Positions 6,701-35,700 of a DNA stretch of 48,658 nucleotides are shown here, one piece after another. The position numbers and the translations under genes were made by a program. Location of the stretch: contig JAZDJU010000059.1 in NCBI GenBank assembly GCA_043803685.1, positions 1-48,658 of the forward strand, written 5' to 3'. Source of the DNA: Candidatus Omnitrophota bacterium (GTDB taxonomy: Bacteria; Omnitrophota; Omnitrophia; Omnitrophales; Aquincolibacteriaceae). The notes beneath the pieces were generated by a model. It was not told where the DNA came from, searched no databases, and saw nothing but the letters and a program-made list of their open reading frames with translations. Within the stretch, counting starts at the first letter, position 1; each line of letters opens with the position of its first letter.

Positions 6701-9700
6701 TGTCACAACCGGCTTTTGTCCATCCTTCGGGAAAAAGCCGCCAAACACCGTCTCAAAAACGCTCACAGGAATACGGGCCAGGCGGCCGTCTTTTCCGTAA
6801 ACACTCTGCTTGTTAAAATCCTCCACCAAGTGATAGCTCGTGTCCGCCTTCTCGATCACAAAGAAGATGTTCTCGATCACATTGGCGTCTTCCCCCTTCG
6901 AGGAATGATCGTACGCCAGCTTCACGAGCGCTTTCTCATTGGGCTTCTCACGAAAATCCTGCATCACTCCCGCCGCATCCGTCACATAGATCCCGCGCTG
7001 TGTCAGCACGCGTCTTGCGATGTTGGCTACCGCCCGAGACCAGATCTTCTGGAACGTCGGATTGCTATTCAATCCCGGTGAATCCCAAGCAAATTGACTA
7101 CGGAGCTGCGCCAGAGCATCCCGATCCTTGGCGCTCAACACCAAAGCTTCCGGACCCGCAGCCGCGATCTGAAAATCAGCCGGGAGCTCTGACAGAGGTT
7201 TTCCGCCAAGATGGATCTTCCCGAACCGGATACGCCCATCACTCGCGAGCCAAAACTTAAAACCCTTACCCAGTTTCGGAAGAAGGAGCCACATCACCCC
7301 ACCCGTCAGCATGTTCCCCTCAAGGAAGGTCATCCCCTCCGCCATCAAGGTCTTCGACCAGTGCTCGAACCGGATCCCGGCATTGGCCGCGCGGGTCTTC
7401 TCGCCACCGTCTGAGACGTTGGCCGTATACTCTTCCAGATAAAAATCCCTACCCATACGCTCAAGAACACGCCGCCGCGATGTAAAAGTTCCGGGAAGAT
7501 CATGATCTAAAGGCTTGTACGGTTTCGCTTCCCCGGGAAGGTTCACACCCGGAGACTGGATCGAGAGGAAGAAGGTAATGTTCCCGTTGAATTTCCTGGA
7601 CATCTCGCGCAAGAAACTCACGTAAGCCAGGTAAGTCCGGGGAGTGAAATTCTGGATATTGATGATAAAGAAAGGCTTGATCTTGCCCGCTCTCACCACC
7701 TCCGCGAAGATCGCCTGAAGATGATCGAACTCGTCACTCGAGGTCTCCGCGCTCGTGATCTCAAAAGGGGTCTGGGTATCCAAATGACGCTTCTCATCAT
7801 CCGTCAGCAACAGCTCCGCAGCCTGAGCCTTCCCCGGAACCTCGCGAATAACGAGCAGGGACGATGAGAAAAGAACCTCCTCGATCCACGTCGCAATCTC
7901 TACATCCTTGTTCTCCATTGCCAGTTTTTCCAGCTCATTCGTAAACAGAATGCCATCCTTAAGAACCGACTCACGGGAACCCCCCGCCGGAACACTACTC
8001 TGAGACAACACCGCCAAATAATGGAGACGAACGATCGTGCTCTGACGATCCTCATCCACAGAATAAGGATGCTGTTTAAAATAAACCCGTGCTTCCTCAA
8101 GCGCTTTCTCCGAAATAGGCTCCCCTACGCGATGCGGCTCGGCGATCCGGCTGAGCGGATCCTTCAATGAATCGTAAAGAACCACGCGAACACCCGATTC
8201 TTTTGAAGCGGGAGTTTTTTCTAAAGAAGGCGTCTTCAAACCGACGAAATCGAGAAGTTCCTGGTTCCCGAGCGCCTGGAGAGGATCCGCGCTATGGACT
8301 AACTCATAAAGATCGACCTCGGGGCTCTCCCCTCCCTGCAACTCATAAAGACGGTTCCCGATAACAAGAGACCTCCCGTCCCACGGTTGTCCATACTCGA
8401 TCACCCGACGAATCCGAAGCTCGGCTCCGGTATCCGCCCTTATCAGCATCAGCGAATCACCGTCCCCGCTCTTCTCAACAGAAAGAACACCCCTGAAGCT
8501 ATCAGCAAGTTCACCTAACGTGATACGTGTCTCTCCCAAATACGCCGCCACAGTACGCATCTCGGAGCGGGCGGAGGCGCTGGGGACATTGCGGACCTCG
8601 GAACGCTTAGTCCCTATGGAGGCTTCGGCTTGCGATATTCTGGCCCTGATCTTGGAGAGTTCAGATTCCGAAAAACTCTTATTAGCAATGATCTCATTCC
8701 ACTCTTTGGAGTCACGCTGAGTCGTTTGCAATTGAGCCGCCAAAGCCTCTATTTTGTCGACGGTCGATGCCTCCTCCGCTCGCCACACTTCGAGGCTCTT
8801 CTGCCAGGTCTGCACACGATCGCTCTCCTGAGCCGCCGGCGCAGCCGGAGATGTTGCAGGAGCTGCCGGAGCATTGGTGGCAGGAGGCGCGGTTGGAGGT
8901 GCGCCCGCCTGTGTTTTTTTCTGAGCCATCTTGGATCTCAGCCACTCCACGAACCCGCCAGCAAGACGGATGAAAGTGCTGGCAATAATAAAAGTCGCCC
9001 ATCCCATCATCCAGGGATCGTTGCCTTGAAGTGCCAGATGGAAAAGCGCGCTTCCGTCCATGCCGCCGACTCCAGACCCTACTGACACAAAGAAAGTATT
9101 CGGATCAAAATGCTGATGGAAGTACCCGAAGAGACTCTGAAGAGTATGCGAGTAAATCATCCCAAAGGTCAAACCCAATGCGGCAACCGCCCGATACATA
9201 GAGCGTCTGTCGGCTTTTCCCGCCTCCATCAGAACACCATCCCAATAGTCCGCCACAGGCTTGGCCAAGAAAGCAAACCAAAGCGGCATCGTGAGCGGAA
9301 GGTAATAGAAAGGCACCACAGCCGCTAGAAGGGGCAAAGCAAAGCCCACGGTGATCAAAGCTCCAGATGCCAAGAGAAGAGATGATCCGATCCTCCGGAG
9401 GGCAACCGCCTCATATTCTTTCCTTTTATCTCCGCGAAAAACCTCTCTTAAAAACCATCCCACGAATCCAGCTACCGCTGCTCCCATCCCGTATTTAAAG
9501 ACCAGAGCACCGGACAAACCCAATATACTAAAACCGGCAACTCCGGATATGATCCCCAGAACGATGATGGATCCAACGACCAAACCGACCGCGGCGCCAC
9601 GCCAGGATCTTTTATAAGAATCCGCCCACATTTGAAAAAAAAGCTTTGGCGTCTTGCTTTCAGCCGTTTTGATGAATGCCTTACCGTCTCCATATTTATC

Positions 9701-12700
9701 TTTGTGATACTGGTTCAGATATTGCTGTAACCGATGTTTATATTCAGTAGGTTGTTGTGTCGTGCGCAACATCGGAATCCAAAAAGCAACAATGCTGACA
9801 ACAATAGCGATAATACCGCCCGATAAGCTCATCACCAAAGGCGGCATGATCGGCGAGAGTCCTATCCCAAATAGCAGGAAAACAGCCGTAAATCCAACAA
9901 GAAGCCCGCGCCGAACCGTGCTGGGCCGCCAATATTCCTTCATAGCTTCCGTTTTAGCGGTCAGATCGGCAGGACGAGCCCCCGGGGAATCAACCTTGTG
10001 CAGAAAACGGAAGAAATCCTCAGTCGCTTCGATGAAATCCATAATATCCAGAACAAAAGTAAGATAAGTCGTACCCCCTTTCTCATCGATCCATCTGAGC
10101 AAATCCATCGGTATTTCCAAGAACCTCCTGCCAGAGCCCGGAGCCCGAGCTTCACCACCAAAACCCTTAACACCAAAACGTTCGAGCCCGTTCACAATGG
10201 CTCCAAATAGTGACGGAACAAAGACCATTGTTAGAATGAGCAATCCGAGCCATTGGGCACCCAGAACAGCGATGACACCATAGACGCCCGGGACAAGCGC
10301 TGCAAAAAGCATAATACCGAGTGTCAATCGCCAAAATGGATTACTGAACATTCCCTTGATCGGTTTATCATCAAAAAATTTTGGCGCTTTGGTTCTGGCG
10401 AAACTTCTTCCAAACAATCTCAGCCAAGTCGTAGGAATGTCATTAGATTTCAACCACTTCTCCATTTTTTGGAGCAAGGTCAAGAAATTCATATCGCGAT
10501 CATCACCAATGAGCCCTTTGCCGTCCGCACGAACCAGGAGAGTTGTACTAACCCCCTGTAAAGGCGGCTCGATGCTCGCGAGATCTTCAAAGAATTTTGA
10601 CGGCAAGTTATCAAGCGCTTGAACGCTCCAAGGCATATTTCTTAAATGCCAGAGACGGTAAAAGAACCGTGACAATCCGGAAGACGTTGACTGCCGATCC
10701 TTATAGCCCTGGATACGGACCATTTTTTCGTGCGCAAAACGAACGATCTCCCAACTGTCCGCAGGCGTTGCAGTGACGATCTCATCTTCACCATTCACCT
10801 TTCCGCCAAGTCCGTTATCACCCGTCAAATTGAGGCTAAAGGTCTTGGGCGGAGTATTTTCGCCTTCCTTAGGCGTTACCAAACTCACAATAGCGCTTTC
10901 ACTTAATGTGTCCAAATGCTTAAACAAAAGTCCATCCAACAGCCCCGTTCGTGTACGGTAGGGCCCCCAAACGAATCCCTTTGTCTGCGCGGACATACGG
11001 CGCGAAACTTTAGTCATGACCACATATTTCCCAAAAGCGCGATTGTAGTTCGCCAGGGCCGCCGCGAACATGATGGTCCGGAACAGCATTTTGTGGATCG
11101 CCTTGCCCTGCGTCCATCCCATGCTTGCCTCATCGCTATCATAGAACGTGGCTCCCTGAAGGATACCGATGTCGGGACGTCTCGCGAGATTACGAGTGAA
11201 GTATACCGAGGCGCCCGCGAACGCAAAATTCGATCCATCCACCGTCGTAGAGTAACGAACGTTCGGGATTGGCTCGCTATTTTCGTCTAATTCAAATGTC
11301 CCATCAGCCTTTTTCTTCGGAAGAAGGTCCTGAAACGCAAGCGTATCTTTTACCTCTCCATACGGAACAAATGCCCTATCAGGGGTCGCAGTCCCGCGGA
11401 AGAACGGTTCGTTAAGTGTCGGGACATATGTCTCATAGGGTGCGACAATGTCCCGAATCTCAGGGGAGTAAGCCTCTTTGATCAAGATCCAATTTCGGAT
11501 CTTCCATTTTGCATCTAAGCTCATGAACAGCTTATTCTGTTTTTCAAAATTCTTTTCTTTTTCCTTTACGATTTTGTTTTTCTCATTCTTTTCTGCTTCA
11601 GGCGCCACCTTCGCCGCAGCCTTAGCATTCTCCAAATCAGCAAGAGCACTCTCCACATCGTCCTTCGCCCTTTGCCATTCAGCAACATTATGCGCTTGAT
11701 GCGCTTCAAGCAATGCCTTGGAAGGCTCTTTCAAACCATTCTCTACACCAACGACTTCATCGTAAAGACTACCGCTTTCAAAAACACGGTTAATTGCAGC
11801 GGTCAGTTGTTCCGCGGTCGCATTCTTTGCCGTAACCCACTCATTATCTATAAGATCCTTGATCACGAGGTCGTTGATCGCCTTTTTGGAAGGATCCCTC
11901 AAGGAAACCTTCAACGCCTCAGCGCCTTTCCTGATATGAGTCTTGACGCCAAGTTTGGATCCGATAATAAAAGCCCGTCCATTGCGGACATGCACAGTAA
12001 CTGCTTCGTCGGCGCCCTCAAGAGTGGCCCCCGCGCCGCTTTGAGGGGTCGTGCCGTCATTCCCCCATCCCGTAAACGCACCCACCATTTCCACATTTCT
12101 TGCAGGCTTTCTACAAGCAGGCATATAGACGATCATCATACGTTCATGACCCGGAACAAATCTTCCCCTTCCGGGATCATTGTCGCCCAAGTAGGGCCAA
12201 TAAACTTTTGCCATTTCCTGGAGGGCCGCCGCTTTTTTCATTTCGGCATCGCCCCAAACCCGGGCCCCCGCCTGGAGCACCACGCGAGTCTGCCTAAAAT
12301 TATTACCGATAAGGATCCTTGCAAGAGAATCGATCACCTTGGGCCAGTCATTGGGCTCGGAGTAATCCAAAAGCCACGGCTGAACATAGAGCGTCAGCTC
12401 ACCATCTCTAAATTCGTAGTCGACACCCTCGGGAAGATCCTTGGGCCGATGCTCCCCAAGAACTTCGTTCATATCCTTGACCTGGATCCTCGCCTGGAGT
12501 TCTCCTTTCCGTTTAGCGAGCACATCCCCCGAAAGGGTCCCCGCCTTCTCTTCGGCGTGGATCGCCTGGATCTCGGTCATGATCGATTTGACTTCCTTCT
12601 CGGACATCTCCCACCCTGTAGAATCGATGTCGTCGACGATCAGACCGTTCTTTTTGTCGAGTGCGATCCATATGGCAAGAACGTATGGGAGTACCACAAG

Positions 12701-15700
12701 GGGCAAAGCCCAATAATTAAGAGCGAACCATCCGAAAAGCACAACCCAACCTCCACCCCAGAAGCCAGAAACCGTGATCGAGAGGGCCGCAAGACCCGTC
12801 AGCCACGCAACACCCTTCGGCCTGGCCAGGATCGTCGACCAGAACGTTTCGGTGAGACTGTTGTACAAGAACTTATAGGCCAGCATGGAGATCGCGATGG
12901 GAACTGCCGCGACAGCGCCAGCCCACGGGGTGATCACCGCCATGGACCAAAAAACAAGCACGAGGTCCGAGTACCCATAAAGAGCCTTCCCAACATTGAG
13001 GCGCATATCTGCCCATTGACGTTTCTTGATCCAGTCGCCGACTTCCGCCTCTTTTTTCAGCTTTGCTTGCGCTCTTGCGTCAAGGTCCTCCACACGCACC
13101 TCAGACCGCTTGGTCGACTGCCCTTCGGCCCGTCCTGTTGGAACGGTGAGAGCGACCTTTTTTTCAAGATGCTTATATTTGGACCTTTTAAAGATCAGTC
13201 TGAAAAAAAACGCAATAAAGGCGCCCATGAATGCGTAAAAAAAGATCTGCTGCAGGGGAGCCTCAGGCGTGTTGAAATTGGGGAGAGGAATCTCAAGATC
13301 AGTCCCCGGGATGCGGAGCTTTTTCTCCCCCGCTTCAAAATTAATAGCGTCCGCGAAAAAAGACCTCTCGGCGAACTCGCGCATGGCCTTGACCTTCTCC
13401 GCGATATCTGTTTCGCTCACTCCCTGCTCGCGCAAAGCCTTCTCCTCTGCCGCGATGTCAGTTTGAGAGTAACGTCTAGGGGCGCTGTATTGCTCCATAA
13501 AGTCCATGTTCAGACGGCGCGTCAAGGCCGCGAATTTGTCTGTCACGAGCTGATCGCGTCCGTTGATATCCGTCTCGGGAATGAAAGGAATGAGAACTTT
13601 TCCCGTCACGGTCGGGTCGTTTCCTTTGACTTCCGCGGCGGGGATATGGGAGGTGAGAATCTCGAAAAGGCCGATCCGTTTCGCCGGGTCCGGGTTCTGG
13701 AGATCCTCAAGAAGCGCGAGCCAGAGCGGTGATTCCAGCTTGGGCTTCGGCCGCGGATCGGATTGCAGGCTCGATTCCTGACTGGCCTGATAGGAGGCGT
13801 CCAAAAGCTTCTGGTATTTCTCTTTCACCCTCTGCATGAAATTGTAAAGATCGAGCGGCGTAATGGCATTCGCCTCAAGCATGGCCTGAATACGGGCTTC
13901 AAGGGCTTCCCGTTGTTTCTCTTTCAATTCGGGATTCTCGGCCCATTTCGCCTCCTGCGCGGACTCGAGGCTTTTCTCTATTTCTCTATTTCTGCCAAGA
14001 TTGAAAAATTTCCAAAACCAATCCTTGTCAGACTTCACAAAACCGGCCCGGCTGTAATTAGCAGCTTCGGGACTCTCGGCATCAACACCTTTCGGACGGA
14101 GCTGGTACGGATCCATCGGGCTTCCCTCCTCACCCAGGAAAGCGCCGAGCGTCTGGCTCACAAGATCTTTTTCCGTCCCCTCTGCCCACGGATAAGGATC
14201 CGGTTGTGCGGCAAGCCCGAGCTTCAACAGGCTGTCCGCCTCAAAAAGGACCCTCTTCATATCCGGAGTTGCGCCTTTCGTGGCATTCGCGTCCTTGTAA
14301 ATCTGGATCCCGAGATCAAGCCACTTTTCAACAGCCTCTGAAGGGATCGAACGGTTGTGACTGTCTTCCGCGATCCTCTGGATCTGGTCTTTGAGCTCTT
14401 TCTCGCTTTCATAGAGCTCTTTCCACTCCGTCTCGGAAAGCATGGCGCGGATGTCGGCAAATTTCTTTTTCACCTTCGTTTCCCGATCCTGAACATCCAT
14501 AAACTCCTCGCGTACGACTTTGATGCGCTCCAGCAATACGGCCGGGATCGCTTCACCGTTCTGGAATTGAGCGCGATCAAGGATCTGGCGGGCACGGTGC
14601 AGGATCCTGGCTTTCATGTCCTTCTCGGCGCTCACATCCCTCTCGCCAACCGCATTCTTGATGTCGATCCTATCGATATCCGCCGCCTGTCCCATGTCCT
14701 GGGCCACCTGCGGAATGATGTAGCCGTTCATGATCAGGATTTCGGTCTCGGAGTATCCGGACCGCAACATCTCCCCGGCAAGGGACATCAGGTCGCTCCG
14801 AGAAAATTCGATGGGCTTCGCTTTGAGTTCCGGAACGTTCTCATTCATTTTCGTCAAGGCATCCGCCAGGCGCTGAACGGTCTCTTTGGCGACCAAGACA
14901 TAAGTCTCTGTCTTAAACCTTTCCGCTGTCGCCGCCAACAACTTGCGCCGGTTTTCTTCGAGTGCGAGACGTTTCTTCTCGAGTTCCCCTTCCTTGTTCC
15001 TCAGCGTCCCGTCGCGCTCCTGCGCTATGCGCGCTTTCTGTTTCGAGTAGTTCTGAATGAACCAAGCGGCCTGTTGATCCACGAACGCTTTGATCCTGGC
15101 ATCAAGCGACGCCAGCGCCGCTGGGTCGAGAACCTTCGAAACGTCGGGCGAGGAACCGTAAGTGGCGCGGATAAACGCATCGCGAGCGTCCTTCATCGCG
15201 ATCATGAATTCGAACTGGGCCGCTTCGATCTGCGCCGGGGTGTACCCTTGGGCACTCAAAACCTGGGTCAAATTTGAAAACTGGGACAAACCCCATTTGA
15301 TCCCAAAAACATTATCCGCTTCAGGGCCGATCGTCGCAGGCAGATCCACGCCCAATATCTGGCGATAAAGGAACCGGTAGTCCCTTGCCTCTTCGGCCGT
15401 GTGGCCGTTCAACTCAGGGATCTTCCGGGTGGCCGTCCGCGTATCGATATTCATGTAAAGCTCGGTCTCGTACTTGTCACGAAGATGCTGAATCGCCTGC
15501 CGCTCCCGGATTTCCATCTTAAAACCAGGTCTTTCCCGGATCGTCAAGGCATTGCCCCGGGCGCTTCGAACAAGCCCCGGAAGCGCTTCGGGCGCGGAGA
15601 AAGTCCCGTACCTTTCATAAAGCACCGCTTCCAGGATCGCCGCATCCGCCAACCAGTCATAAATACGCCGCTCGAGAGCACCCGCTTCTTTCGGAAAGAA

Positions 15701-18700
15701 CTTCGCCCCCCGGTACCCCTCGGCGTTCCGGTCCTGTATTTCAAGGTCCCGTGAAATATTCCCGAAGATCTTCTCGATCGGCCAGCGGGCGTGATTTTCC
15801 TTGACCCATCGGACAAGATCTTTACTTTTGATGGTTGCTCTGTTGTCTTTGGTCGGATTCCCATCCTGACCGATGCCGACAAATCCGAATTCTTCTAGCC
15901 GCTTGGCGATCTCCGCCGAAAAATCGCGCACGATACCATCATAGGCAAATTTGTTATCTATGCCTTTTTGGGGTACATAGGGATTCAGTTCATTCCCATC
16001 AGGGTCCTTAAATTCACGCCCATCCAATGCCGCCGCGAGCAATCCGCGCCCGGTCAACAGTCGTGCGTAGAACTGCAATGCCGGTTCAGTTTCCTTCTTC
16101 TCGGCATCCGGTTTTACCTGCTGGGTATCCGGTTTTTCCTGCATGGCATCCAGTTTTTCCCGAAGCATAATGACACGGGAATAGGACGCCAATTCTCCCC
16201 GGGTCAGAAACTGCCGCTGTCCTTTTCCATCATTTTCAACACCCGGTTTCCCGGAGTCGATAACCGGGTAAAGATCATTGGCCGCCTGAAGATACATCTC
16301 CACTTCCACCCGTCTCTCGATATCTTTTTTGGCATTTTCGGCATTGTCCGTCTTTGCGAGGCCCCAACGGATCTGCTCCTCCACCCACGCCTTAGCCTCG
16401 TTCACCGTATAAGGCTCTGTCGAGAGGTCATCGATCGACTTGAGCATTCGACCTTTTTCTTGCTCGGTCATCCAAAAGGGTAATGTCTTGTATTTCCCAT
16501 CTTCCTTGAAAGCATTTATCAAATCGTTCCCGACATTCGCCCTGGCTTTGAGAACGGTGTTGACCCAATCGTAGTAAGTTGCGACCTGTTTTTTGTATTC
16601 TTCGAGACCCAACTTTCCATCGCGATCAAAAAGCCGGTGGATCGTCGTATATTCCGCATCGAGATCATCCGCCCTCACCTTGAGCGTCGAAACTGCAACC
16701 GAAGGCGCTTCACCTTTGGGATTCGTGATTTCATAAATGGCTTTTCGTTTATCAAGAATTTTTTTGGCTTCAGCCAGATAACCCGCGGCCCCGTTCTCCT
16801 TCTTGATCGCGTCGCCCTTGGAGCCTTCTTCGTCCACGCCGGCCAATTTCAAGGTCAAATCCCGGGCCAGCATCACCTGGTCGCCGACCTGGGCACGCGG
16901 ATTGTTCGCTTTTGCCTTATAAGCCCCGTCGCCATCAGTATCCTTCAAATACTGGTCCAACACGGGATTCGCCTTCCCCTTCTCCTCCGATTTCAGAAGG
17001 ACTGAAAAGAGCATCCATATATTGTCCTTGTTGACAGGGGTACCATCCGCATTAAAGAAATCTTTCCACGCGGAGGGTTTCGTCGCGATCTCGCGCGCGA
17101 CGGCGAAAAGCGTCCCGAGCTCTTTTTGGGTTTCATTGGTGATCTGCCCAGTGCCGTCTTTCCCAAGGGCTTTATTCATATTGAACGAGATCTCGATCCA
17201 TTTTTCGATCGATTCAGGACTGAGTTCGTTATATCGCGCATTCTCATACCACGCGGTGACTACGCCGCGATCTTTCCGGCTTGTCTTGATGTCGATCTTC
17301 GGATAGAGCCCTTTCCTGAGGGCATCCGCGATCCGAGGCATGGCGCGATAGGAATCATGGATATCGTCGCTCAGACCAGAAAAAGGACCCGCTTTGAGCG
17401 CCCCAGGACCTTGCTTGGCGAGTTGGTCCAGCACGGGACCTAAGCCCATGGGCTTGGCCTGCTGCAGCATGGCAACGATCCGGTCCGCCTGCCCAGGATA
17501 ATCTGTCTCAGGATACTTTGTTTTCAGGGCCGCGATCTTCTTCTCCGTCAACTCCGCGGGATGCCCCTTGATCCCTTCTTCCTCCACAAAAAAACCATTG
17601 AGCATTAACCAGTCAAACATCTTGGGATCTTCGGGAAAGACCGCTCCAAAAGCGCTCTTCGAGACAAGACCCTGTCCACGGGCATATTGTTCCAGCGTAT
17701 TGATCGTCCGGAACATCACCTCGCCAAAAAGCTGCCCATTCCGAAGGCTCATCAGCTCCTTCTCGACCTCCCGCATATCAGGAATAGAATCGGGTCTCTG
17801 CTTCGCCTCAAGAAAACGCAGCATGACTCCATCCGAAGGGAGCGCTCTCAGCTCTCCCGGTTTCAACTCATAAACCTTCTTGATACGAGCGCGCTCGTTC
17901 TGAAGGATCTCGTCGGCCAAAAGAGCGATCGCGCGAAGGCGGTCGAAACGCACGGCTTTGTCGGGACTATAGATCTTGCCCATAAAGCTCATGAACTGCC
18001 AAGCCGTCAGGTCGGGAAGGCTTCCCATGGCCATATCGCCGTAGAGCGCTGAGTCCCTACCAAAATGTTTAAGATAAAGAGGCCCGACGATCTTACGGAC
18101 CTCGTCAAAATCCTGGAAGGGCTCGCTCACCTGCTTCGAGAACATAAAGTAAGGCGCCTCACTGACCCGGCGCTGAGTGTACGTGTACCAATCGAAGAGC
18201 GCTTCCGTGGCAAATCGAGTCTTCAGCTGTTTCCACCCCTTCTCATCCTTCGGAGCAAAGAAAGTATCTTTGGGATTAGCCATCTTCTGCCGGGCAAGCC
18301 ACCCTTTGAAATCCTCGCGTTTATCAAGGGTCTCGACCAATCGTGCGAAGAGACCGTCCCGGGTCAAAACACCAAGCTCGGCATCGGTGAATTCGATCCG
18401 GACAGGGGCACGATCCTTTTGTTTGCTTTGGGCAGCAATATTTTCAAGGATCTTTGAGAGGAAAATGAAGTGGACTTCCAGCCGCTCAGAAAATCCCTGA
18501 TTGAAAAGATCCGTAAAACGGGCCCGGACCATCGCCGGGACCTTTGAGGCCTCAACGCGATTCAACTCCTGAGGCTTTAATTCTTTCAGGATCGACGCCG
18601 CGTAAAAAACATAGGCCCCCAGAACGCGGAGATCCGTTTTTTCGTCCAGCTCCGTGGCATCCTCCTTTTGAGACATCGCCGCGATGATGTCGGTATCCAG

Positions 18701-21700
18701 AAGGCCTTCGATCACCTGCGCAAAGTGCAAACCCCATTTTTCGTCACGAGGCACTCCCTGCTCAGGATCCACAAGCTTGAGAAACTCCGGGTCCTTCAAC
18801 TTGTCGCGAAGCGACGCATTCCCCTTGCTCCCGGGCTCGGACAACACCTTCATGATCTCCAACATGGCCAATCGCTGGTTGGGATTCAACTGCATGGCGT
18901 TGAACAGATTGACAAAGATATCTTCGACGACGATCACGGGGCTCAATCCCCCCTTGATCCTCCCGTCCTCCTTATTCAGATCCTTCTTGGCGATGTCGTC
19001 CACCCCGAAGATATTCTTCCACAACACCTTCACGGCAGGCTCATAAGCGGCCGCGGACGGATCCCGGTAATCCTGGCGCGGTTCACGGGCCAGCACCTGG
19101 GAAACATCCTTCAATTCCTTGATCATATCCACGGGAGGTTTGGGGGTAGGCGACACGCCTTCCAACTGCTCATCGATCTTTTTCACCTCAATTGCCGCCT
19201 CAGAGATCCTTTTGCCAGCCGCCTCAAGCTTCTCCAACGCATCCCGTTGATGAGTCTCCACCGGCAACGTCTTTTGCGCGACACTTTCAAGTTTCTTCGC
19301 CACGTCTCCGAGTTTCATCAAGGCGAGCGTGCTTTTGAAATTGATCACGGATTTGTTGAGTTCAAAATGAGCGCCGGAAAGCTGCAAGGCATCGATCTCA
19401 AGGCGATTCAGGGCGGCATGGGCCTCATTGATGGTTCTCACCTTGGTGCCTGTGATCCCCTTGGCCCGGTAACCGTTCACAACATCGGTTGCTGAAGTCT
19501 CGGACATCGCGAACTCATTCGCCATTTGAAGCAAGCGCACCCGGTTCTGGACAAACGTCGCATATTCATTCAAAGCCTGCAACTGAATGGACCTCAGGAG
19601 AGGGTCGGATTGCACTTTGGCTAACTCTTTTTTGGCCTCCTCAAGCTTCAGAAGTGCGCCCTGCTGGGCATGGATCAAATGAACCGTAGCCTCGACTCCC
19701 AGGGACTGCGTCGTCCCTAAAAACGCCCCCGCTTGGGAAGTCCCAACACGTTTCTGCCACTCCTCCCTGATCGCGGCGTCCGCCACATTGACGTTTTCAA
19801 TGATGGCCTGATACCGGGGATCGTCCAAAGCGCTTTTCAGCATGTCCCGAACAATATCCCCTTGGATCTCCTCCCCGTTAGAAACCTGGTCCAGGAGTTT
19901 CGTTTCAGGGACATCGATCTTGACGTCCTTCGGGATCTCCGCGACAAATTTCAGCATATTCTCAGAAATGCTAAGGTCCCGTTTGGCCGTCTCCACCATG
20001 GTACGCGTACGGATCATCTCACCGTCGATCGCGGTGTGATCTTCCTTAGCCATTCCGACATCCGCGCTTGCGTTAAGCTTTTCGCGCCAACGAGCCTGCT
20101 CCTCGCGAATCCCCAAAATAGCCTTGGCACGCAGGACATCCTGCCACGCAAGTCTTACTAAACGACGCTTGAGGTCCTGGCGATATTCGTTCTCTTTGCC
20201 AAGCTGTTTGGCCCTCAGCTCATAGGCCTCCGCCTGTCCGCTCTTCAACAAAGCTTCCACAAGGTCCATGGTGAGCCGGACGCCGATCTGAAGATCGTCC
20301 CCCGAACCAAGCCCAAGCGGGATCTTACTCGCTTCCGCGCTCGCCCCGGCATGACGCAAGAGTCTGTATTCCTTCTGAATGTCAGAAAGATCGCGCGCGA
20401 GCCGTTCGTTCGAACTTGCGACACGGTCACTGCTCGCGGCAACGAATTTTTCGAAACTCTCCTGATCCTGACTTATGATCAAACGACCGCCCCGGATCCC
20501 CATGTCCTTTAACCGATTATTTTCCGCGTCCGAAGAGACAGCCCCGGCCCGCGCAGGGCTCTTCACCGCAAGGTCACGCGAACGAAGGTGTTCATTCCTC
20601 GTATGGATCAGAAGATTGTCCGCCTGGGTCGCGCGATTCACTCTTCCGATCGCCGTAAAAAGATCCGCCTCTCCTGCTCCCGTAACCGCACGTTGCTGCT
20701 TCGCTGAGAACTCGACTTGATTTTCCCTATCGAGATCCCCAAGGAGACGTTGAGTTTCCTTTTTTTGGTCCACGGTGTTTTTGACCTGGTAGCCAAGATT
20801 CTCATAGACCAAGGGTTCCCGAAGTAGGAACTTCTGATAATCTTCGTAGACGACCCCAAGATTCGTTCGCGCGATCTGGATGTTAAGATCTTTATCTTTG
20901 GAAAGCGCTCCGGAATAGAGCCGAAGACTCGCCGATCCCCCCAGTTCGCCCACACCCTTGTCGCCCGATGCGTTAGAGAGGAAAGGGAACATGAGATAGA
21001 GTTGTTTGTAGTTCGCCTGCTCCGCCGCGCTCCAGAGCGCCCACTGGATCCGCACCCTCTGATCCGCGACATTCTGATCGATCTCCGGCTCAAAGGCGCG
21101 CCGCTCCGTTTCAGCGACCCATGCTTCCATACCCTGCTTGACCGGGGTGACGTAGTCCTTCTTGATCACACTAAAAGATTGCTCATCCGCGGGGGTATAG
21201 ATCAATGTATCGCCCTTTTCACCCACGTTACGACCCATCAGACGGAGCATTTTCTGCTTCTGCCTGCCATACGCATCCTCCAAAGATGTTTTGGCATCCC
21301 GGAGGAACTCAAGCCGCTGCGTCCCCGACCGGATCTGAATATCAAGATCGTCTCTCTTTGCCTTCGTCTCGTCCAGAGGTAGCTTCAATTCCCGCAACCC
21401 GTTCAACTGATCTTTGAGCAAGACCAAGAGTCCTCTGGGTCGCTCTTCCTGAATGAATGGGGAACCCCCAAGATCCAGCTTCTTCCCGGAAAGATCGGTG
21501 ATCGCGACGATGCGCCGGTCACCTTCCGTTGGCTGAACGTTGACGCGAACTTTTGTTCCGTCCGCAAGTCTTCCAAGATACTGGCCGCCTCCCGCCTCCG
21601 AAGTCACGGTAATGAGACGCTCACCCTTTGCCGTACCGATCACCAGAACCTTCTCAGAACGGGTCATATCTTCGATCCCCATGCCAAGCCAAACGATACG

Positions 21701-24700
21701 GGAGTGGATCTCATCCAGTGCATCACGCTGGTCGAGGATATTTTTGACATACTCACGCGCGTGAGCTTGCTCCAGGAGCTCTGATTCTCTCAGCGCCTGG
21801 TAGAAAAAGTCGAGTTGCCCCGAAAGATCAGGATCCCAAGTCCCGGTGAAACCGACCCCCATGGCCCCGTCAAAGATCCCGATCGATTCGATCCCCCCAC
21901 CCGCAAAGGAATAACCGCCGAGTTTCAGTCTTTCCTTGCTCTTGGGCGGCCCTAGCTTTTCAAGATCCGCATTCACCTGGGAAAGAACCTTTTTCAATGC
22001 GTCAAACTCACGCCCGGCCTGCTCTTTTCTATCCTGGGTCGTCTCAGAAGAATCGCGGACCGCCTGGGCTTGATCCATGAGATCCTTGATCTCTTCTTTT
22101 TGACCTTCCCAAACACCCCGCATGATCTCGGGAAGCATCGCTTTTAGAGCTTCATGCTTGATCCCATTGATCTTCTGGATCTCGGTCATGATGACCTCGG
22201 GAGCGCGAGGTTTGCTCCGGAAGAGATCGCCAATCATTTGAAACACGCTCCGGTCAGCAAGCGCCGTAGCCCGCTCGAATTCATCAAAAAGACCGGCCTC
22301 GGCGTCCTGAAGATCCTCGATCATCACCTCACGTTCCTTGGCGTCATCGATCTTGCCGTCAAGGTTCACATCCAGGGCATCGACCTTCCCTACGAATTTG
22401 ATCCCCGCGGCACTCAACGTCTGGATCATGCGTTCCCGGAGCTCCCGGGCCCGTAGATCCTCGAAACGAAGGTTCGCGTTGGATCCAAGCTCCAGGTTCC
22501 GCTTCGGATCCGTCACATCGACCGACGTCGGAGAACCCGGAGACCCCAACTTGGCCTCGAGCTGCGTGAAATATTCCGCATCGAACGGTTTGGAGCTCTG
22601 ACCCGCCTTGGCTTTTTCTTTATCTTTCTCAAAATCTTTTTCGAATTTTGAAAGAGTCCCGGACACACCCGCCGCAAAGCGATCCACCTCGATCTGGAGC
22701 CGCTCCTGCTCGTGATACGCATGGTTCATGGCGGTTCTTTCGCGGCTATAGTTCTCAACTGCCGACTTGAACCGTTCCGCCCAACCCGATTCCTTGAAAC
22801 GCTCCCTTTCCAGATCCATAAGCTCTTGAGCTGACTGAAAACGCGCGATCGCTCTTTGAGCCGCCTGTTGGGCCGATTCGACGCGCCCCTTCAGATCCGC
22901 CAGGTTCGCCTCGATCCCTTGAGCATCCAGGAAGTACTGGTACGCCGCGCGGTCGCGGGCGATCATATGGATCATGGGATGAGTTTGGGGATCGCGCGTA
23001 AAGGAAAGCGGGATCCGGAAATCACCCGCCCCTGAAAAATTCAAAAAAATCCGAGGATTGAAAAAGACGGCCATCTTTTCCTGAGCTTCCCTATAGGCGG
23101 TTCCAAGCACGTCCACCGAATACTTCCCTTGAGCGAGCACGCGATCCATATTCATTGCACCGCCCATACTCACTTTGTATCGCGCCAACAGAGCCTCAGA
23201 CTTCTTGCGGATCTCCTCGGCATTTACGGGATCCTTGCCAGCACCTTCCAGAGCCTCATCAAAAACGATCGTTTTTTCCGTGACTCCGATCAAAGCGCCA
23301 ATGGCACGCAGGATCTCGGCCTGTTCCTGAACGCGGGCCTCAAGATCGTACTCGAGATCGCGTCGCGCCCTTTCGATTGCGGCAGCAGCATCCGGATCCA
23401 TACCCGTTTTTGTGTTATCCCTGGCTTTCTCCTCGTCTATTCGAACCTTTGCAAGATTATCCCTCAAACCCTCTGCTAACGCTTTGGAACGGAAATAATT
23501 GTTAAGATGGGTCCGGACTTCACGAACAGTATCCGCCGCCACCCGTTGGACCATCAACTCAGCCTCATCCTCACGCTCTTTCGCAAGGTTGTCCTTAACC
23601 TTGGCCGAAGGATCTGAGATGGAAACTTTTAGTTCAAAACCAACACCGGCATTGATAGGGGCAGCATTAAAAAAATCTGAACCCGCACGGGCGACAACGC
23701 TTAAAGTCACCCCGCGTTCATTCCGGTGATAATGGGCCAACGCCTTCGCAACCTTTTCGGAAGCGCCTCCCACCGTCATACTATGATTGACGGCCTTGTT
23801 CAAAAGCTGATCCAACCCGATCGCTTTTCCATCCGGCCTGTACTCGGGCGAATCGATGATCACGAGCGGGATCGCCGGAGTAACTTTCCCAGCCCCGATC
23901 TCTTTTACCCTCAAAGGAATAGCGATTTTAAAGACGTCGCGCACGATTTCGAGCTCTGAGGGCGAGAGCGGCCCGCCCGGAATACCCTGGAAACTCTCCG
24001 GATCCTTTATGAATTCCCCGAATCGCGCGATCAGATTATCCGTGTCTTCTTTTAAAGCAACCTTAGGATCAATGGCTTTTTTTGAATTGTCCGAGTACTT
24101 ATCTTTGAAGTAATCGTTGAGAGATTTAGCATAGCGCTCACTGAGAATATTGATAACACCTGCTCTCTTCAACAATTCGTCGGAGCCCTTCCGATCCGCA
24201 CCGGTCGCCTGACGCCGGATCTGGTGAAGAACTTCAACCGAAAGGAAAGACGATAATCGCTCCGCATATTCCTCAACACGCGTATCAAGACGGTCCTCGG
24301 CTGCCTCGCGTGCGCTCAGAAGCTGCTCGTGGAGGTCCTTCTTGGGCCGGGTGACCTCTGCCGCGACGCCCATCGGCCCGGAAACGGCCGCTTCCTTGAT
24401 AAGCTTTTTGACCCCTGACCTTTCGATCTTCTGGACAGCTTTTTTCTCTGTTTCAGGGGCAGGTGTCGCAGCAACCTGAGCGGGCTTCAGTTCAGCTTTA
24501 GGAGCGGGCGCTTCGACGACCGTCAGAGGCTGCACGGCGACCTTGGAAGGCGTTGGCGCGGCAATCTTTGCAATGGCTTTTTCGCCGATGGCAATGGGAC
24601 CTGAAATAACGGCCAAAGCGGCCAGCGTATTACCCCCGAGAATATTGTCGACCCCGGCGCCTTTCAAAGGCGTGAGCGTCTGCCCCACGGGAATTTTCTT

Positions 24701-27700
24701 GGCTATCTCGAGGCTAGGCTGCTTCCCTTTCAAGATGCCGGCGAGTTCGGGGTTTTTCGCCACTTCCGCTTGAAAGTTCTTGATCGCTTGAGGAATGTTC
24801 GCCTGGATCCAGGCGTTAAGGTTCGAGAGCGTTGCATCCTTCCCTTCTCGCGCAAGCGCGGCTTTACCTACCTCGATCACATTTCGAAGATCGGCCGAAT
24901 AAGTTCGCAACGCATCGCTTTCCTGATAGGAAACCGGTTCCTTAGCTTCTTTCACCGGAGCGGGAGCTTTAACCGCTGGCTCGGTAGCAGGCTTCGCCAT
25001 CGGAGCAACCTTCACCACGGCCTTCGAGAACCCTGCGTCAACCCATTGAAAGAGCACTTTGGTGTTCGTCCCAAAGTAGCCGGTGTCCGGAGAAACAGCA
25101 ACCGTCTGAAGTTTTGCGCCGCCCAACTGCGCGCTCATTGCGGCAGAAGGAGATCCCTTCAGAACACCGAGAAGCTCAGGATATTTTGACGCCTCAGTCT
25201 GGAAGTTTTTGATCAATCCGGGATACTGATCACGGAACCACTTATTGAGAAGCGCAGGCGTCCGCTCCATGCCTTCCTTAGCAAATGCTTTCTCACTCTC
25301 GGCAAGCCTGAGCTTCATTTCTCGAGTCAGTGTTCGCAGTGTCTGACTTTCAAGATACGCGCCCACCGCCGGAAACTCTTTGGATGGCTCAACGATCGAT
25401 TTAGCCGGTTCTTCAATAGTGACCGGTGCGATTACAGGAGTGACCTTCGGAGTGGCCATATCCGCAGGAGCTTGCGCAGCAGTTTTTCCAACACTCGCCT
25501 CCAGCTTGGCAAGTTTTCCTTGCAAAGAACGTATTTCCTCTAGATAGAGAGTCGTGTAAACATCGTTGAGTTGAGCGCTTGTCTTTCCGCTCACCACCAT
25601 CTCTTGTCTCAGCGCCAAACCATCTTGCGCAAATTTTATTTTTCCAAGCGTCTCTTTTATCTGCAAAGAGATCTCCTCAGCGGACCCACCTGCCGGCTCA
25701 GTGAATTTTTTAAACGCAGCTTCCGAAGCAGTCTTGGAAGTGGCCATGTCCGGAGTAGCTTGAGAAGCTTCCTCCGCAGCTTTCGGGATGAGATCTGCGG
25801 GAGGCGTCACCGCAAACGACGATGTCGGCGAAATAGATTCCAGGATACCATTCCCGAGAGCGGCAAACCCCGACACAACAGGATCAAGGGTTTTATGCCC
25901 CCACGAGATCATCTTGTGTTCGACAAAACCTACGACGTGACTCGCAAGCATCCAGTTTTCATTAAAGCGGAAATCAACACCCACGGACTCCAAGCCAGAA
26001 TTAGCCGCCCCTAATACCGATTTATCGAGCAACTGAACAAAGCCGTCCGTGCGGGCATCAAAAGCCAACCCTTGAACGTGCACAGGAGCCGCTCCCGCAT
26101 GATCAGGAACTTCAACGCCCGCAAGCGTTCCGATCTCAACATTCACAAGGGCCATACCAACGCCGCCCGCGTAAGACTCCATAAGATAAGCCTTAAAAAG
26201 GTCCCACGTGGTAAACACTGTAAAAATACTAACGAGTCTGGAACGGATCTGAAGAATTCCGCGATCCAACACAGACAAAGCCGGAGCTCCCTCTTGCGAC
26301 ACAAGCCCAAGGCTTTCGAGCTGAGCATCAAACTTCGCACGCTGAGCGTCAGAAGTAAACCGGATCAAGTTAAGCCTGCGGAGCGTCACGAGGTCCTGAG
26401 CCACATCGCGACTCAGTTTCCCTTCCGCGATCAACGAAAGGATCCGCATCACAACCTGCCCCGTCAAAAGAACCTGAAATGCCTGCAACCCTCTCAATTT
26501 TACGGGGGTCGAGGAACCTTCGGCGGTGAAAGTCGTCATTTGCGCTTCGATCGCGTCAAAAACTTTCCGGGACTCCTCGCTGACCCATCTATGGTTCGCA
26601 AGAATGGCTTTGTCGCTGAAATGCTGACTAAGAAGCCCGATATACTTTTCCATGGCAAGAGTGGCGCCCATTCCCATAGCCACGGCGAGCCCCTGAAGCG
26701 TGAGCGCTTTAGCCAACAGCGTAACAAAGGCACTCAGAACAGGAACTTCGGCGGTCAGAACAATGGCCTTTGCGAAAAATCCTGCAAAAAGCTGCGCGGA
26801 AGCAATACCCGCCGGGAGAAGCGAGAAACCGAGAGCCACCCCAGCGCCCACAACCATCATCAGAGCTGCAAGCTTCCACCGGCCTTCCATGAACTTCGCC
26901 AGAGGATTGAACCAGGGATCAATGCCCCAGGCATAAACTGAACGGGCGATACTGAGGGAGGTCTTTCCAAGAGCACTCTGGGGCATTCCATAGTTAAAGC
27001 CGTGAACGATCCTCTTGCCGAGATCCGCTTTCAGAAAAACGGCATAAGCGATCTTGTGTAAAAATCCCTTTCCTTTCCAGTCTTCATGGGTCGCACCGTA
27101 GTATTTTTGCTCCGACAACAACGCCACGCCGTCCAGCAACGAAAGAGCCTCAACAAGAGGCATCACCGTCTGCGTTTTGCTCTGGAACAATCCGAAACGC
27201 TGGCCCCATTTGTCCGGCCAGAATCGTACAAAGTTTAAAACGATGCCCGGCCAATGCCAAAACGCAAGTGCTCCCATAATGGGGTTAAACGCCATTTGAA
27301 CCGCACCCAGAGCCCCTTTCGCTTGTGTCTTACTTTGCGCCTTGATCTGCCTTTCCCGGGCCTTCGCACTAGCGACCTGTTCATCATGCGTGCGTTTGAA
27401 CTGGTTGTACGCAAGACGCCAATCAACTGAATCGAGATCCTTACCACGAACCTTCTGAAAATATTCCGCCGCGATCGTCTCATCGCCATCAAACCAGTTG
27501 TGGACCACCGCCTGCCTCAACTTTTCCTGACTCGCATTCCATGGATTCCACACCCATGTGAATTTAACTTTCCTCGGTTGGACATTTTCCGTGACCTGTG
27601 TCAAAGGCGTTAAAAACGCCGTGAATTTTTGTTCTGCTGAAACGACCTCGGATTTAGCGGCTTCGGGTGCGGCGGGTTGCGCTTCGGGCTGGGCGACCAC

Positions 27701-32381: not shown

Positions 32382-32439
32382 ATGAGTATCTCGCTCATTG
32401 TTATGTCTCAATATATATCGAGAGTTACGATCTGTCGAG

Positions 32440-32467
32440 ACTATATATTTTGAATTATAACTGTCAA
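32440..32467 (-). promoter_or_regulatory. Sigma70 promoter of the AbiE-like operon with an overlapping inverted repeat
   Basis: TTGACA (32467-32462), 16-nt spacer, TATAGT (32445-32440). AATATATA (32410-32417) and TATATATT (32442-32449) form an inverted pair that may be an autoregulatory operator. Confidence 0.7.
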
Positions 32468-32496
32468 CGCGGATGGGGTCAATAGCTGAAGCGGAT

Positions 32497-32615
32497 GTCA
32501 TTGCGAGGAGCGATTTTTGCGACGCGGCAATCTCGCTTTTAAAACAGACTGTCCGCCAGAGGACGGATCCGTCCAATGTTTTATGGCGGACTTCACCCTT
32601 CGGGTTCGCAATGAC
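32497..32615. repeat. REP-like palindromic element (GTCATTGCGA...TCGCAATGAC) containing a nested TCCGCCA...TGGCGGA hairpin
   Basis: Perfect 10-bp terminal inverted repeat, internal GCGACGCGGCAATCTC and CTTCACCCTTCGGG, and an inner palindrome at 32552-32590. Confidence 0.75.
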
Positions 32616-32751: not shown

Positions 32752-35700
32752 CTACGCAGAGGCCAGAACCTTCGCCTGGGCCGCGACATAGGTCGTCAGC
32801 TCCGCCATCAAGGCTTCCAGCCCACCAAGCTTCTCCACGGACACAAAGTGATAGCCCAATGACCAGATCGATTCATTCAGTAGTTTATCCGCCGCCAAAA
32901 GTGTGGAAGCGGTTTGCTTCAGCGGATCAGAAGCACCGACCACGCTCAAAAGATGCTTACGTGAACCGATCTTTTGGGTCACGACCGAATTCTCACGATC
33001 CGTAATAAGAGCCACGGATTTTCCGAACGGCGCCGCGCTATTATAGAAACCGGCAAAAGCTCCGACGAATTCGTTTTCATCGCCGAATGCCTGCACCTTA
33101 AAATTCTGCGGTAACGCTCCCTTCGCGCTCAACGCCGCAAGTTCCTTTTCGAACGCAGCAACCTCAGAAGCGTCTGCGATCAAGGCGAGCCTCACTTCGG
33201 ACCTTGCATTGTAAAGCGCAAAGGTCACCAAAGGCAGAACACTTGCCGCGTCCGGGATCCCCTGCCGCTGATCGATGACCATACGTTCCGTAGAAGCTGT
33301 CGCGAAGCGGCTAATGATCTTGCCAAACACCGGCCACTTGGTCGCAAAAGCTGACGGAACCACCGAGACTTGCTGATAATGAGCAGTACCGACGAAAAGC
33401 TGCGGCTTGATCTCCTCAGCAAACGCCGGAGCGCTCGAAACAAGCGGAGAAACAATCTTCTCCACCACGCCAAGCGCTACCCTGATCTTCGTACCCAAGC
33501 TACTTGTATTCGCCAACGAAACCTGAGAAACAACAGGCGTCTCAGTCCGGACTTCAGAGGGTGCGACATCTGCCTTGTCGCCATTCTCAGCACGGATGCT
33601 ACTACGTGCCTCCGAGCGGACGATAGTTATCTTTAGTTCACCTGGGACATCAACAACCTTATACCTATCATCAGTTCCAGGCCCAGGAAATGGCCCACCC
33701 CCCTTAGGCCAACCTTCATCCGTAACGGAGTTATCCTCTCCTTCGAGATGTGACTGTTCTTGCTCTTCCACATATGTAGCTTTTGTCTCTTCACCTCGCT
33801 CTAAATTGGCTTTGATAACCTGGATTGCTTCAGCATCTAATGCATTGTAGGAACCCATACCATAGCTGATCCATACAAAATACCTCTGCAACTGGATCAA
33901 ACGATCGTCCTTAATATCACGCAATGCACGAGCAGCGCTAGTGGGAGCATCCTTCAATGCATCAATCAACGCTGAAACGGCATTTTTTTCTTTATGTTTA
34001 CCAAGCAACTCGGCGGACATCGACCGGACATAGGCTGAAGCATCTGTAAGCGCGGCAATCAACCGTCCAGTTATCTTGGTGTCACCACACTGCCAAAGAG
34101 CTTCCGCAATTGCAAACCATACGGCTCCGTCTTTTTCTTTATCCAAAGCAACTGTCAAAACAGGAATGGCAGTGAAATCTTTTAAAACGGCCAGCGCCTC
34201 GGCAACAGCCTTTCTAACGAAAGCACTTTCATGCTCAAGTGCGGCAAGAAGCTCCGGAAGAGCCTTTTTATCACGCAGAATGCGAACAGCAGCAAGTTTG
34301 CGATTCACACCGCTATCATTGAATCTACCATCCCACCACTTGGGCTGGAGGTCCGACATCGCCTTCTGGAATTGCTTTTCCTGCGCGGGCGTCAACCGGA
34401 CTTCGGAACGGCTTCCGCCAGGGCCTCCAATTCCTTCCCAATAGCCCCTATCCTCATCATCATCCGAACTAACTGAATTACTCTCTGCGACTTCACGACG
34501 TTCCCTCTCCTTCCATGAATACTCGTTTAATGCCGTTGTGGCAACAGAACCTCCTATTTCCTGCAAAGCAGCCTCTACTGCATTCCGAACACTCTCTCTT
34601 GAATCCCCTAAGGCATCTATCAAAATAGGAACAGCTCGGAAATCCTTGCTTCTCCCAAGTGTTTCAGCCGCAGCAATCCGCCGCGATACACGTTTCCACC
34701 TCAAGTCGTATATAAAATTATATTCACGCCCATTAAACGACTCACCTAACAAAAAATAGTCGAGAAACAAACTTTCTTTTAATTCTTTTTTCGCTTTCTG
34801 AAATTCCGCTTCCGTCAGCCGGACCTCGGAACGGGATTCGGGGACAACTTTGGTTCCCGAAGCATCCTTGCGGTCCATGCCAGCAATCGAACGTATAAAG
34901 TTAAAAAACTTCAGAAAGACGAAACGATACACGCTCATTTCCAAGAAAAAGAGCGCGGTGATCCACGTGAACTGGAACAACAAGATGCCCAGAGTTAATT
35001 CACCTATAAAATATTTCAAATATTCGCCACAAGCCAGCCCGGCGAACAAGGCCATGTACCTGGCATCCCTGCTCAACCTGGCTTTGAGCGCCTGCTCACC
35101 GGTCAGTTCAGATCCGGACCGCTCGAAACGTTTATACCCGGATATCAAATAAAGGACCAAATACCCGTTAAGTCTGGTGAAAGTGATGACCGCCAACGCT
35201 GCAAAAACAGCGTTTAGAACGTGGGTATCGACCCCCATTAGCTGGAATTGAAAATGAGCCAGGTCCGGCATCGCGAATGCCGGAAACAGAAGGCTTGAGA
35301 CTGTCATGGTCTGCGGCTTGCGGTCTTCTATACGATTAAATTGCTTTTCCTGTGCGGGCTTCAGCCGAACTTCCGACCTCCCTTGTTTTTGAATTTCTTC
35401 ATACTTTTTCTTAAGAACTTCAACAACATCCATGGCCCGGTCGGAAAGCAGAAGGAGCGTCTTCCTGCTTTCGCTACCGTCACTTGTTGCCTCTGCCGCC
35501 TTTCGCAGGACGGGACGGATCTCCGCCGCGATTGATGAAGCCCCGTTTCCTTTTTTTAGTCCGATATAGATCAAACTTTGAATCTGCCCTAACCGAAGCT
35601 GAAGCACTACATCCATCAACTCTTTCTTCGCCTCACGCTGGTACGTCTCCGCAAAAGATCGCTGGTATCCCAATACCATCTCCACCCGCTCTACAGGGAC

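Follow-up and report, generated by a model that had tools for sequence, protein, structure and literature searches.

The stretch of DNA analyzed here (the window) comprises positions 1 to 48,658 of contig JAZDJU010000059.1 from a Candidatus Omnitrophota bacterium, and carries two giant open reading frames (ORFs), giant A and giant B. This report concerns a region of giant A that resembles outer-membrane factors (OMFs) of the TolC/OprM type. A first-pass annotation, made from the sequence alone, had described a chain of more than 10,000 aa with three TolC-like protomers fused in tandem at 19320-23820. The chain is indeed a single minus-strand ORF of 10,106 aa (2..30319) without a stop. Because residue i of giant A begins at nucleotide 30319-3(i-1), the annotated segment corresponds to aa ~2167-3667, and the TolC-like module as delimited here occupies aa 2160-3675 (1516 aa). 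The description of this region as a conserved module of about 1500 aa, made of three tandem and strongly diverged OMF-type protomers of which the middle one (P2) is putative, is largely right. The features on which the argument depends are as follows, the boundaries between P1, linker, P2, and P3 being working limits from alignment with relatives, and each P unit being halved into a and b.

2..30319, minus strand: giant A, 3′-open ORF of 10,106 aa that reaches the window edge without a stop
32752..46914, minus strand: giant B, ORF of 4720 aa
Giant A aa 12-30, minus strand: N-terminal hydrophobic segment (hydropathy scan)
26426..26872, minus strand: hydrophobic cluster on the upstream side of the module, with four 19-mers of Kyte-Doolittle mean ≥1.6 (aa ~1150-1298)
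22640..23842, minus strand: P1, first TolC-like protomer, aa 2160-2560 (Pfam, hhalign, AlphaFold2 [AF2], Foldseek)
23270..23842, minus strand: P1a, first half-repeat, aa 2160-2350, with a hairpin at about aa 2206-2232 (~23624-23704)
22640..23167, minus strand: P1b, second half-repeat, aa 2385-2560, with a hairpin at about aa 2423-2440 (~23000-23053)
22103..22639, minus strand: linker domain between P1 and P2, aa 2561-2739 (179 aa), without TolC likeness
20510..22102, minus strand: P2, putative middle protomer, aa 2740-3270 (weak hhalign matches, Atlas lead, hairpin spacing)
~21833-21928 and ~20909-21004, minus strand: hairpin-like blocks of P2, about aa 2798-2829 and aa 3106-3137
21380..21664, minus strand: beta-rich insertion inside P2a, aa ~2886-2980 (alignment of relatives)
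19295..20467, minus strand: P3, third TolC-like protomer, aa 3285-3675 (hhalign, Pfam in orthologues, Atlas)
~20264-20326 and ~19673-19741, minus strand: hairpins of P3, about aa 3332-3352 and aa 3527-3549
12653..13246, minus strand: first hydrophobic cluster on the downstream side of the module, with five 19-mers (aa ~5692-5889)

Giant A fits the Omnitrophota giant membrane proteins, with at least 10,106 aa, hydrophobic clusters at five places, and zero Pfam families at E≤0.01 when the whole protein was scanned in three large pieces. The Pfam OEP match described below appears only when a half-repeat is excised, and large-chunk domain scans of giants can therefore miss weak domains. In a simple hydropathy scan, made with no trained topology predictor, the module sits between the hydrophobic clusters at aa 1150-1298 and aa 5692-5889. 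The Omnitrophota giants described so far include the "Archaeovorins" and related proteins, and according to the available portions of these reports (10.1101/2023.11.21.568195; 10.64898/2026.06.07.730766; PMC10066038) they resemble giant A in being very long ORFs with few Pfam domains and several transmembrane clusters; to judge by the names of its relatives, giant A also belongs to the same phylum. HEAT repeats, present in the relative P0004 and in giant B, are a further point of likeness.

The relatives are giant proteins of 6825-7941 aa, and those that have names come from Candidatus Omnitrophota metagenome-assembled genomes (MAGs). The size class of 5500-17500 aa yielded P0002, P0003, and P0004, of which the two with names are again Candidatus Omnitrophota, and among 8000 scored candidates of 825-2627 aa there was no relative at E≤0.001. 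A scan of genome contigs identified three loci (L001, L002, and L003, with L002 identical to P0003), all in Candidatus Omnitrophota MAGs. A P2-P3 profile searched against 1.84 billion representatives retrieved only nine proteins at E≤0.001, namely P0005, P0007, P0008, and P0010 (giant or large), P0004 again, and four short fragments; no free-standing form of the module was found by this search. The whole module is collinear in P0005, P0007, and P0008. P0004 and P0010 begin inside the module and are left out of the complete-module set, which comprises eight sequences (the window, L001, L002, L003, P0002, P0005, P0007, and P0008). The conserved core is wider than the module, at about aa 2011-4534.

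All eight complete-module sequences contain six short Gly-rich beta-hairpin-like blocks in the same order, at the sites where the half-repeats had been annotated. The number of units is always three, ordered P1, P2, P3, and never one, two, or four. In relatives without the P2a insertion (L002, L003, and P0008), successive first strands are spaced by 204-219, 324-392, 206-214, 206-246, and 192-229 aa, the second interval including the linker; the corresponding spacings in the window are 218, 384, 301, 227, and 195 aa. With the linker and the P2a insertion set aside, the hairpins are 192-257 aa apart. Length variation is concentrated at hairpin turns, in P2b, P3a, and P3b, as would be expected of external loops. 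The segments are about equally conserved among six close orthologues (mean pairwise identity 41.7-52.7%, with 45.9% for P2a and 48.0% for P2b), and the connection between P2 and P3 is short, at about 15-30 aa. The units are not recognizably alike, since a BLASTP self-comparison of aa 1901-3900 showed no match off the diagonal at E≤10 and 14 of the 15 half-repeat pairs reached at most 0.7% probability in hhalign; the best pair, P1a-P3b, aligned weakly and in register with E 0.011 (6-sequence profiles) or P 0.001 and 21.3% (8-10-sequence profiles). Mutual divergence of the units combined with 42-53% conservation among orthologues is the pattern expected of a pseudo-symmetric single-chain assembly.

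Likeness to OMFs was assessed by profile-profile alignment. The OMF reference consisted of E. coli tolC and 12 plasmid TolC-family genes (13 genes), and then also of six genes of the OprM, AdeC, TOprJ1, SilC, and NodT types (19 genes); locus L017 was left out of it as its longest frame was wrong. In a positive control with the 13-gene set, the N-terminal half of the OMFs matched the C-terminal half at 99.7%. Query profiles for comparison with the OMFs contained 8-10 sequences. The P3 profile (10 sequences) aligned with the 19 OMF genes at 97.2%, E 3.2e-11, over 313 columns (P3 57-384 to OMF 66-403), and with the 13-gene set at 96.1%; taken separately, P3b matched the OMF C-half at 95.1% and P3a the N-half at 66.8%. 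The Pfam family OEP (PF02321) was also detected in the P3 of distant orthologues, with 46.3 bits in P0007 (E 5.6e-12, profile positions 7-187 of 187), 23.3 bits in P0010, and 9.8 bits in P0008. These matches all fall on the P3b half, and two of the three lie above the cut-off. Among the Atlas language-model neighbors of P3, which serve as a lead only, 29 of 30 were OEP/TolC clusters (score 0.98). A tblastn search of P3 against plasmids yielded five chance-level matches, none of them at a TolC gene. Judged from its sequence, P3 is homologous to OMF protomers.

For P1, the evidence extends from sequence families to a predicted fold. The excised P1a half-repeat (191 aa) matched Pfam OEP with 23.7 bits (E 4.6e-5, cut-off 22, profile positions 2-180 of 187), and the longer segment 23820-22670 matched the same profile positions with 20.7 bits (E 4e-4), below the cut-off. 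The P1 profile (8 sequences) aligned collinearly with the 19 OMF genes (8-349 to 2-360, 332 columns, 42%, P 2.6e-4), and against a merged OMF+P3 profile the values rose to 87.5% and P 3.6e-6 over 333 columns. P1a reached 55.8% against the OMF C-half and 85.9% against OMF+P3. P1b of the window had no Pfam OEP match and reached 8% against the 19 genes and 55.1% against OMF+P3; it is also spanned by the collinear P1 alignment and by the full-length AF2/Foldseek match. The AF2 model of P1, built from 8 sequences, consists of H10-41, E47-55, E65-73, H80-145 (66 residues), H152-185, and two short helices, followed in the second half by H232-255, E264-268, H289-352 (64 residues), and H356-399. This is the order of an OMF protomer (helix, hairpin, helix of ~65 residues, helix), twice. 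A Foldseek search of the Protein Data Bank (PDB) with this model returned 39 matches at E≤0.001, the best being VceC 1yc9 (E 1.4e-8). Of the 28 matches listed, 24 are named OMFs (VceC, TolC, ST50, SilC, CusC, OprM, CmeC, MtrE, TOprJ1, and OprN) and 4 carry generic labels (efflux complex, "membrane protein from P. aeruginosa"). The OMF matches had TMq values of 0.42-0.58 over 415-459 columns and extended to E≤4.8e-4, after which the next matches began at E≥0.04, where non-OMF proteins (F-BAR, MSP-1, SNX) had TM≤0.19; three more OMF chains with TM 0.37-0.44 lay beyond E 0.04. P1 is homologous to OMF protomers and, as modeled, has the OMF fold. For P1 and P3, the first-pass annotation of a TolC-like first block (23820-22670) and third block (20480-19320) is accordingly borne out, by Pfam OEP, the collinear profile alignment, and the AF2/Foldseek matches for the former, and by the hhalign result and the OEP matches in two distant orthologues for the latter.

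When 75 single-sequence windows of 400 aa across giant A were scored with the OMF profile, the five best scores all fell in P1 or P3, and none of 22 windows of giant B was TolC-like (maximum 20.6). The six half-repeats from four orthologues (24 pieces) gave Pfam OEP matches in two pieces at E≤10; in L003, P1b had 6.6 bits (E 8.3), below the cut-off. Since OEP is found in P1a of the window and in P3b of an orthologue, the first and last half-repeat positions are OEP repeats in at least one member. A home-built hidden Markov model (HMM) of OMFs, run with HMMER against ten giants, gave matches of 5-8.5 bits only, three of four in P3b, and NCBIfam found nothing in the three annotated segments. Chou-Fasman and beta-moment scans were too crude to serve as evidence.

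The middle unit gives lower scores. P2 aligned with the 19 OMF genes at 18% (P 1.3e-3, 120 columns), with OMF+P3 at 44.4%, and with a profile into which P1 was merged as well at 35.3%; these weak matches lie in the expected register, running from the end of one half into the hairpin of the next. Its Atlas neighbors, again a lead only, were TP096X_N (16 matches) and clusters of which only a minority include OEP (14 matches); the top TP096X_N neighbor had a score of 0.92 and a recognition of 2155, below the 2300 mark. Taking its context, hairpin spacing, alignment register, and Atlas lead together, P2 is probably a TolC-like protomer too.

Two further elements lie in the middle of the module. 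The insertion in P2a varies in length: the window, L001, P0002, and P0005 have 88-99 aa at this site, P0007 has 51 aa, and L002, L003, and P0008 have 11-14 aa. The module as a whole measures 1396 aa in L002 and about 1467 aa in P0008. From the sequence pattern, it would lie between the presumed descending and ascending helices, at the would-be periplasmic tip. The linker ahead of P2 is conserved among the six close orthologues (52% mean identity, 136-185 aa), and gave 0.1-0.6% against the OMF profiles. Pfam found no family in the linker, the P2a tip insertion, or the flanks of the module. The linker contains an EF-hand- or dockerin-like loop, DVNLDGKID (giant A aa ~2650-2658), that is kept in most relatives and deleted in L002.

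A number of results weigh against a single-chain channel of three TolC-like protomers, or limit how far it can be pressed. With smaller query profiles (4 sequences, against 17 OMFs), the scores were modest for P3 (38.5%, 262 columns) and P1 (21.2%, over 71 columns that correspond to the N-terminal helix and hairpin), and P2 had 0.5% (P 0.13); the printed alignments of these profiles place hairpin upon hairpin, with the N-terminal helix and hairpin of P1a on those of TolC. The Pfam cut-off was passed by 1 of the 24 excised pieces (P1a of the window), and no OEP match was found in P2, whether in the annotated segments or in excised half-repeats. Single-sequence P2 windows scored 17-18 against the OMF profile (median 13.9, 90th percentile 19.2), and none of 9 single P2 sequences exceeded 3.7%. 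Searches of PDB sequences with phmmer and hmmsearch, using the 1501-aa segment, the P2-P3 profile, the P1 profile, and the P3 of P0007, returned no OMF. The hairpin strands are short, at about 7-9 residues. The P1 model is of middling quality (mean predicted local distance difference test score [pLDDT] 65.5, predicted TM score [pTM] 0.52), its hairpin regions (residues 44-76 and 258-298) have pLDDT<50, the fourth of the four expected strands is unformed so that the second hairpin is single-stranded, and the root-mean-square deviation from OMFs is 8-13 Å. TolC-family structures were part of the AF2 training data, and the fold match therefore depends on them; the modeled fold shows compatibility and a homology-level likeness rather than independent proof. 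Lastly, scans of both giants and of small ORFs in the 48.6-kb window detected no HlyD/MFP, RND, ABC, or MFS family. The first-pass annotation counted six OEP half-repeats and held that fewer than six in a domain search would speak against it. Pfam alone does find fewer than six, and more sensitive methods support four of the six, with P2a and P2b putative and without significant OEP signal. Its three tandem protomers likewise stand for P1 and P3 by sequence, profile, and (for P1) fold, and P2 is consistent with the proposal by position, spacing, conservation, and weak in-register matches.

In one alternative, P1 and P3 are TolC-like units around a middle that is not, so that the third protomer would be recruited from elsewhere, or the module would form a different envelope-spanning helical structure, without a self-sufficient 12-stranded channel. 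Every direct test of P2 was non-significant, the unit contains a beta-rich insertion of 95 aa, and the 179-aa linker ahead of it is itself not TolC-like, all of which would suit such a middle. However, the two hairpin-like blocks of P2 lie as far apart as expected (206-214 aa in L002, L003, and P0008, which lack the insertion), its hhalign matches are in register, and its profile score of 38.1 compares with a maximum of 20.7 in 30 control windows, an uneven comparison as the controls were single sequences. The Atlas neighbors, TP096X_N and in part OEP clusters, point the same way, and a non-TolC middle is rather unlikely.

OMFs work with a periplasmic adaptor and an inner-membrane pump, which are often encoded nearby. 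Compared with characterized OMFs (TolC, VceC, OprM, CusC/SilC, MtrE, and CmeC; PF02321), P1 and P3 are alike in protomer size (~390-400 aa), and the P1 model has the same two-fold internal repeat, with helix, hairpin, long helix, and helix occurring twice; its best structural matches are VceC 1yc9 and TolC. The differences are considerable. Sequence identity between P1 and OMFs is 8-15% in the Foldseek alignments. OMFs are free-standing proteins of about 420-500 aa with their own signal peptide or lipobox, whereas the module forms aa 2160-3675 of a chain that exceeds 10,106 aa. Three identical chains make up an OMF, and the module has three unlike protomers in one chain. It also has the extra 179-aa linker domain, the variable tip insertion, and very short hairpin loops, and the adaptor or pump gene often seen near OMF genes was not seen in the window.

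The available text of a 2021 review (PMC8277102) and of a study of Treponema pallidum (PMC8407342) describes OMFs as trimers that provide 12 strands, formed as homotrimers of separate chains. In the most probable model of giant A, each protomer would contribute two half-repeats, in which a short helix is followed by a beta-hairpin and then by a helix of ~65 residues that descends and another that ascends, and the three protomers would pack together within one chain. The result would be a pseudo-threefold channel whose six hairpins would supply 12 strands in the outer membrane and whose helices would line a tunnel in the periplasm; membrane insertion and openness are presumed. That one chain builds one such channel is plausible, and we regard it as an evenly balanced proposition. 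On either side, the channel would remain covalently linked to parts of its own chain with inner-membrane-type hydrophobic helices, and it could serve as a built-in exit duct or as an outer-membrane anchor of the giant protein. A fuller version is more tentative and on balance somewhat doubtful: a single polypeptide would span the envelope, with inner-membrane helices flanking the module, and would form its own asymmetric pseudo-trimeric outer-membrane channel, in which the tip insertion could act as a gate or dock a partner.

A different arrangement with the same three TolC-like units is that each of them trimerizes with the like unit of two other copies of the giant, or with mixed partners, so that three chains would build three channels. 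This would follow the homotrimers of canonical OMFs as portrayed in the accessible parts of the structural literature (PMC8277102; PMC8407342). However, exactly three units are present in 8/8 complete-module sequences, their mutual divergence together with orthologue conservation fits fixed, non-equivalent positions in a ring, and the ~15-30-aa connection between P2 and P3 would keep neighboring units close. Because of the constant number of three, the fixed order, and the divergence of units that are conserved among orthologues, one chain with one channel is favored over three chains with three channels, and we consider the inter-chain arrangement quite unlikely.

There is only a slight chance that the module is a TolC-derived fold that no longer conducts, a permanently closed anchor or strut embedded in the outer membrane that fixes the giant across the envelope. 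Such a role would agree with the failure to detect an adaptor or pump family in the window, with the large tip insertion in 5/8 complete-module sequences, and with published views of Omnitrophota giants, which in the sections available stress adhesion and surface display (10.1101/2023.11.21.568195; PMC10066038). Yet the tip insertion is missing from three relatives, and partners may be encoded outside the 48.6 kb of the window. The remaining explanation, that long amphipathic helices in a generic coiled coil resemble TolC by chance, is scarcely credible: the region is mostly helical in a crude propensity scan and its Pfam matches at permissive thresholds are mostly to coiled-coil families, but collinearity of the alignments extends over 313-333 columns, with hairpins matched to hairpins, OEP is present with 46.3 bits in an orthologue (P0007), the Foldseek list of OMFs gives way to helical proteins only at E≥0.04 and TM≤0.19, and helical regions elsewhere in giant A, like those of giant B, do not rise above background, so that for P1 and P3 this explanation is already contradicted.

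If a single chain does form a single channel, the module would represent a naturally occurring single-chain OMF, giving a giant surface protein an exit duct of its own. As a natural covalent pseudo-trimer, it would indicate that the threefold symmetry of OMFs can be broken, leaving each third of the channel free to evolve separately, which bears on gating, on the evolution of pseudo-symmetric membrane proteins, and on protein design. It would also provide the first concrete structural role for part of the nearly unannotated Omnitrophota giants, and a testable idea of how giant chains reach or hold the outer membrane. In a literature search with most subscription journals outside its scope, no TolC-like module in a giant protein and no natural single-chain OMF was found described. 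Within the available portions of three reports on Omnitrophota giants, the words "TolC" and "efflux" are absent (10.1101/2023.11.21.568195; 10.64898/2026.06.07.730766; PMC10066038), as is "OEP" from the portion of the one text checked for it (10.64898/2026.06.07.730766). The same partial text reports two DeepTMHMM "BETA" calls, in giants of 15,129 and 10,556 aa, and dismisses them as artefacts because only short strands were predicted between long periplasmic regions (10.64898/2026.06.07.730766). A TolC-like module would look like these calls, and, as far as that excerpt goes, may explain predictions that were set aside. A parallel to the divergence of the units is seen in Treponema pallidum, where, in the part of the report available, TP0966-TP0969 are four co-transcribed, diverged TolC-like OMFs (PMC8407342). 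They resemble the module in being strongly diverged OMF paralogues side by side; as presented there, they differ in being four separate genes, each modeled as its own homotrimer, whereas the module is one fused chain.

Several other features of the window were observed. The pentapeptide RSE[VMI]R occurs 7 times in giant A (aa 586, 5738, 7239, 7251, 8348, 9450, and 9855) and 10 times in giant B (aa 657, 746, 1119, 3066, 3357, 3407, 3846, 4028, 4169, and 4571), whereas 200 shuffles of the same sequences averaged 0.01 occurrences and never exceeded 1. Each relative has 1-7 copies of the motif, which may mark sites of processing or sorting. No copy falls within aa 587-5737 of giant A, the stretch in which the TolC-like module lies. 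Giant A also contains a tandem duplication of ~1094 aa with 85.6% identity (aa ~7250-8337 and ~8347-9439, window ~2000-8570), each copy of which is preceded by an RSEMR motif. An N-terminal domain of ~550 aa is common to giant A (aa 11-518, ~28766-30289) and giant B (aa 19-570, ~45205-46860), with 25% identity and E 2.5e-35, and had no match in Pfam. The smaller genes of note lie between the giants and beyond giant B.

30911-31879 and 31689-32576, minus strand, between the giants: AbiEii-type nucleotidyltransferase (NTP_transf_8, E 1.2e-11) and AbiEi antitoxin-like regulator (E 1.6e-5)
47359-47562, plus strand: HicB-like antitoxin ORF
47660-47971 and 47974-48387, both minus strand: nucleotidyltransferase paired with an NTase_sub_bind/HepT-like ORF

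The AbiEii/AbiEi pair looks like a type IV toxin-antitoxin pair. In giant B, Pfam identified a CofD-like domain (aa 2702-2813), DUF218 (aa 3120-3239), and the HEAT repeats mentioned above (aa ~4208-4273).

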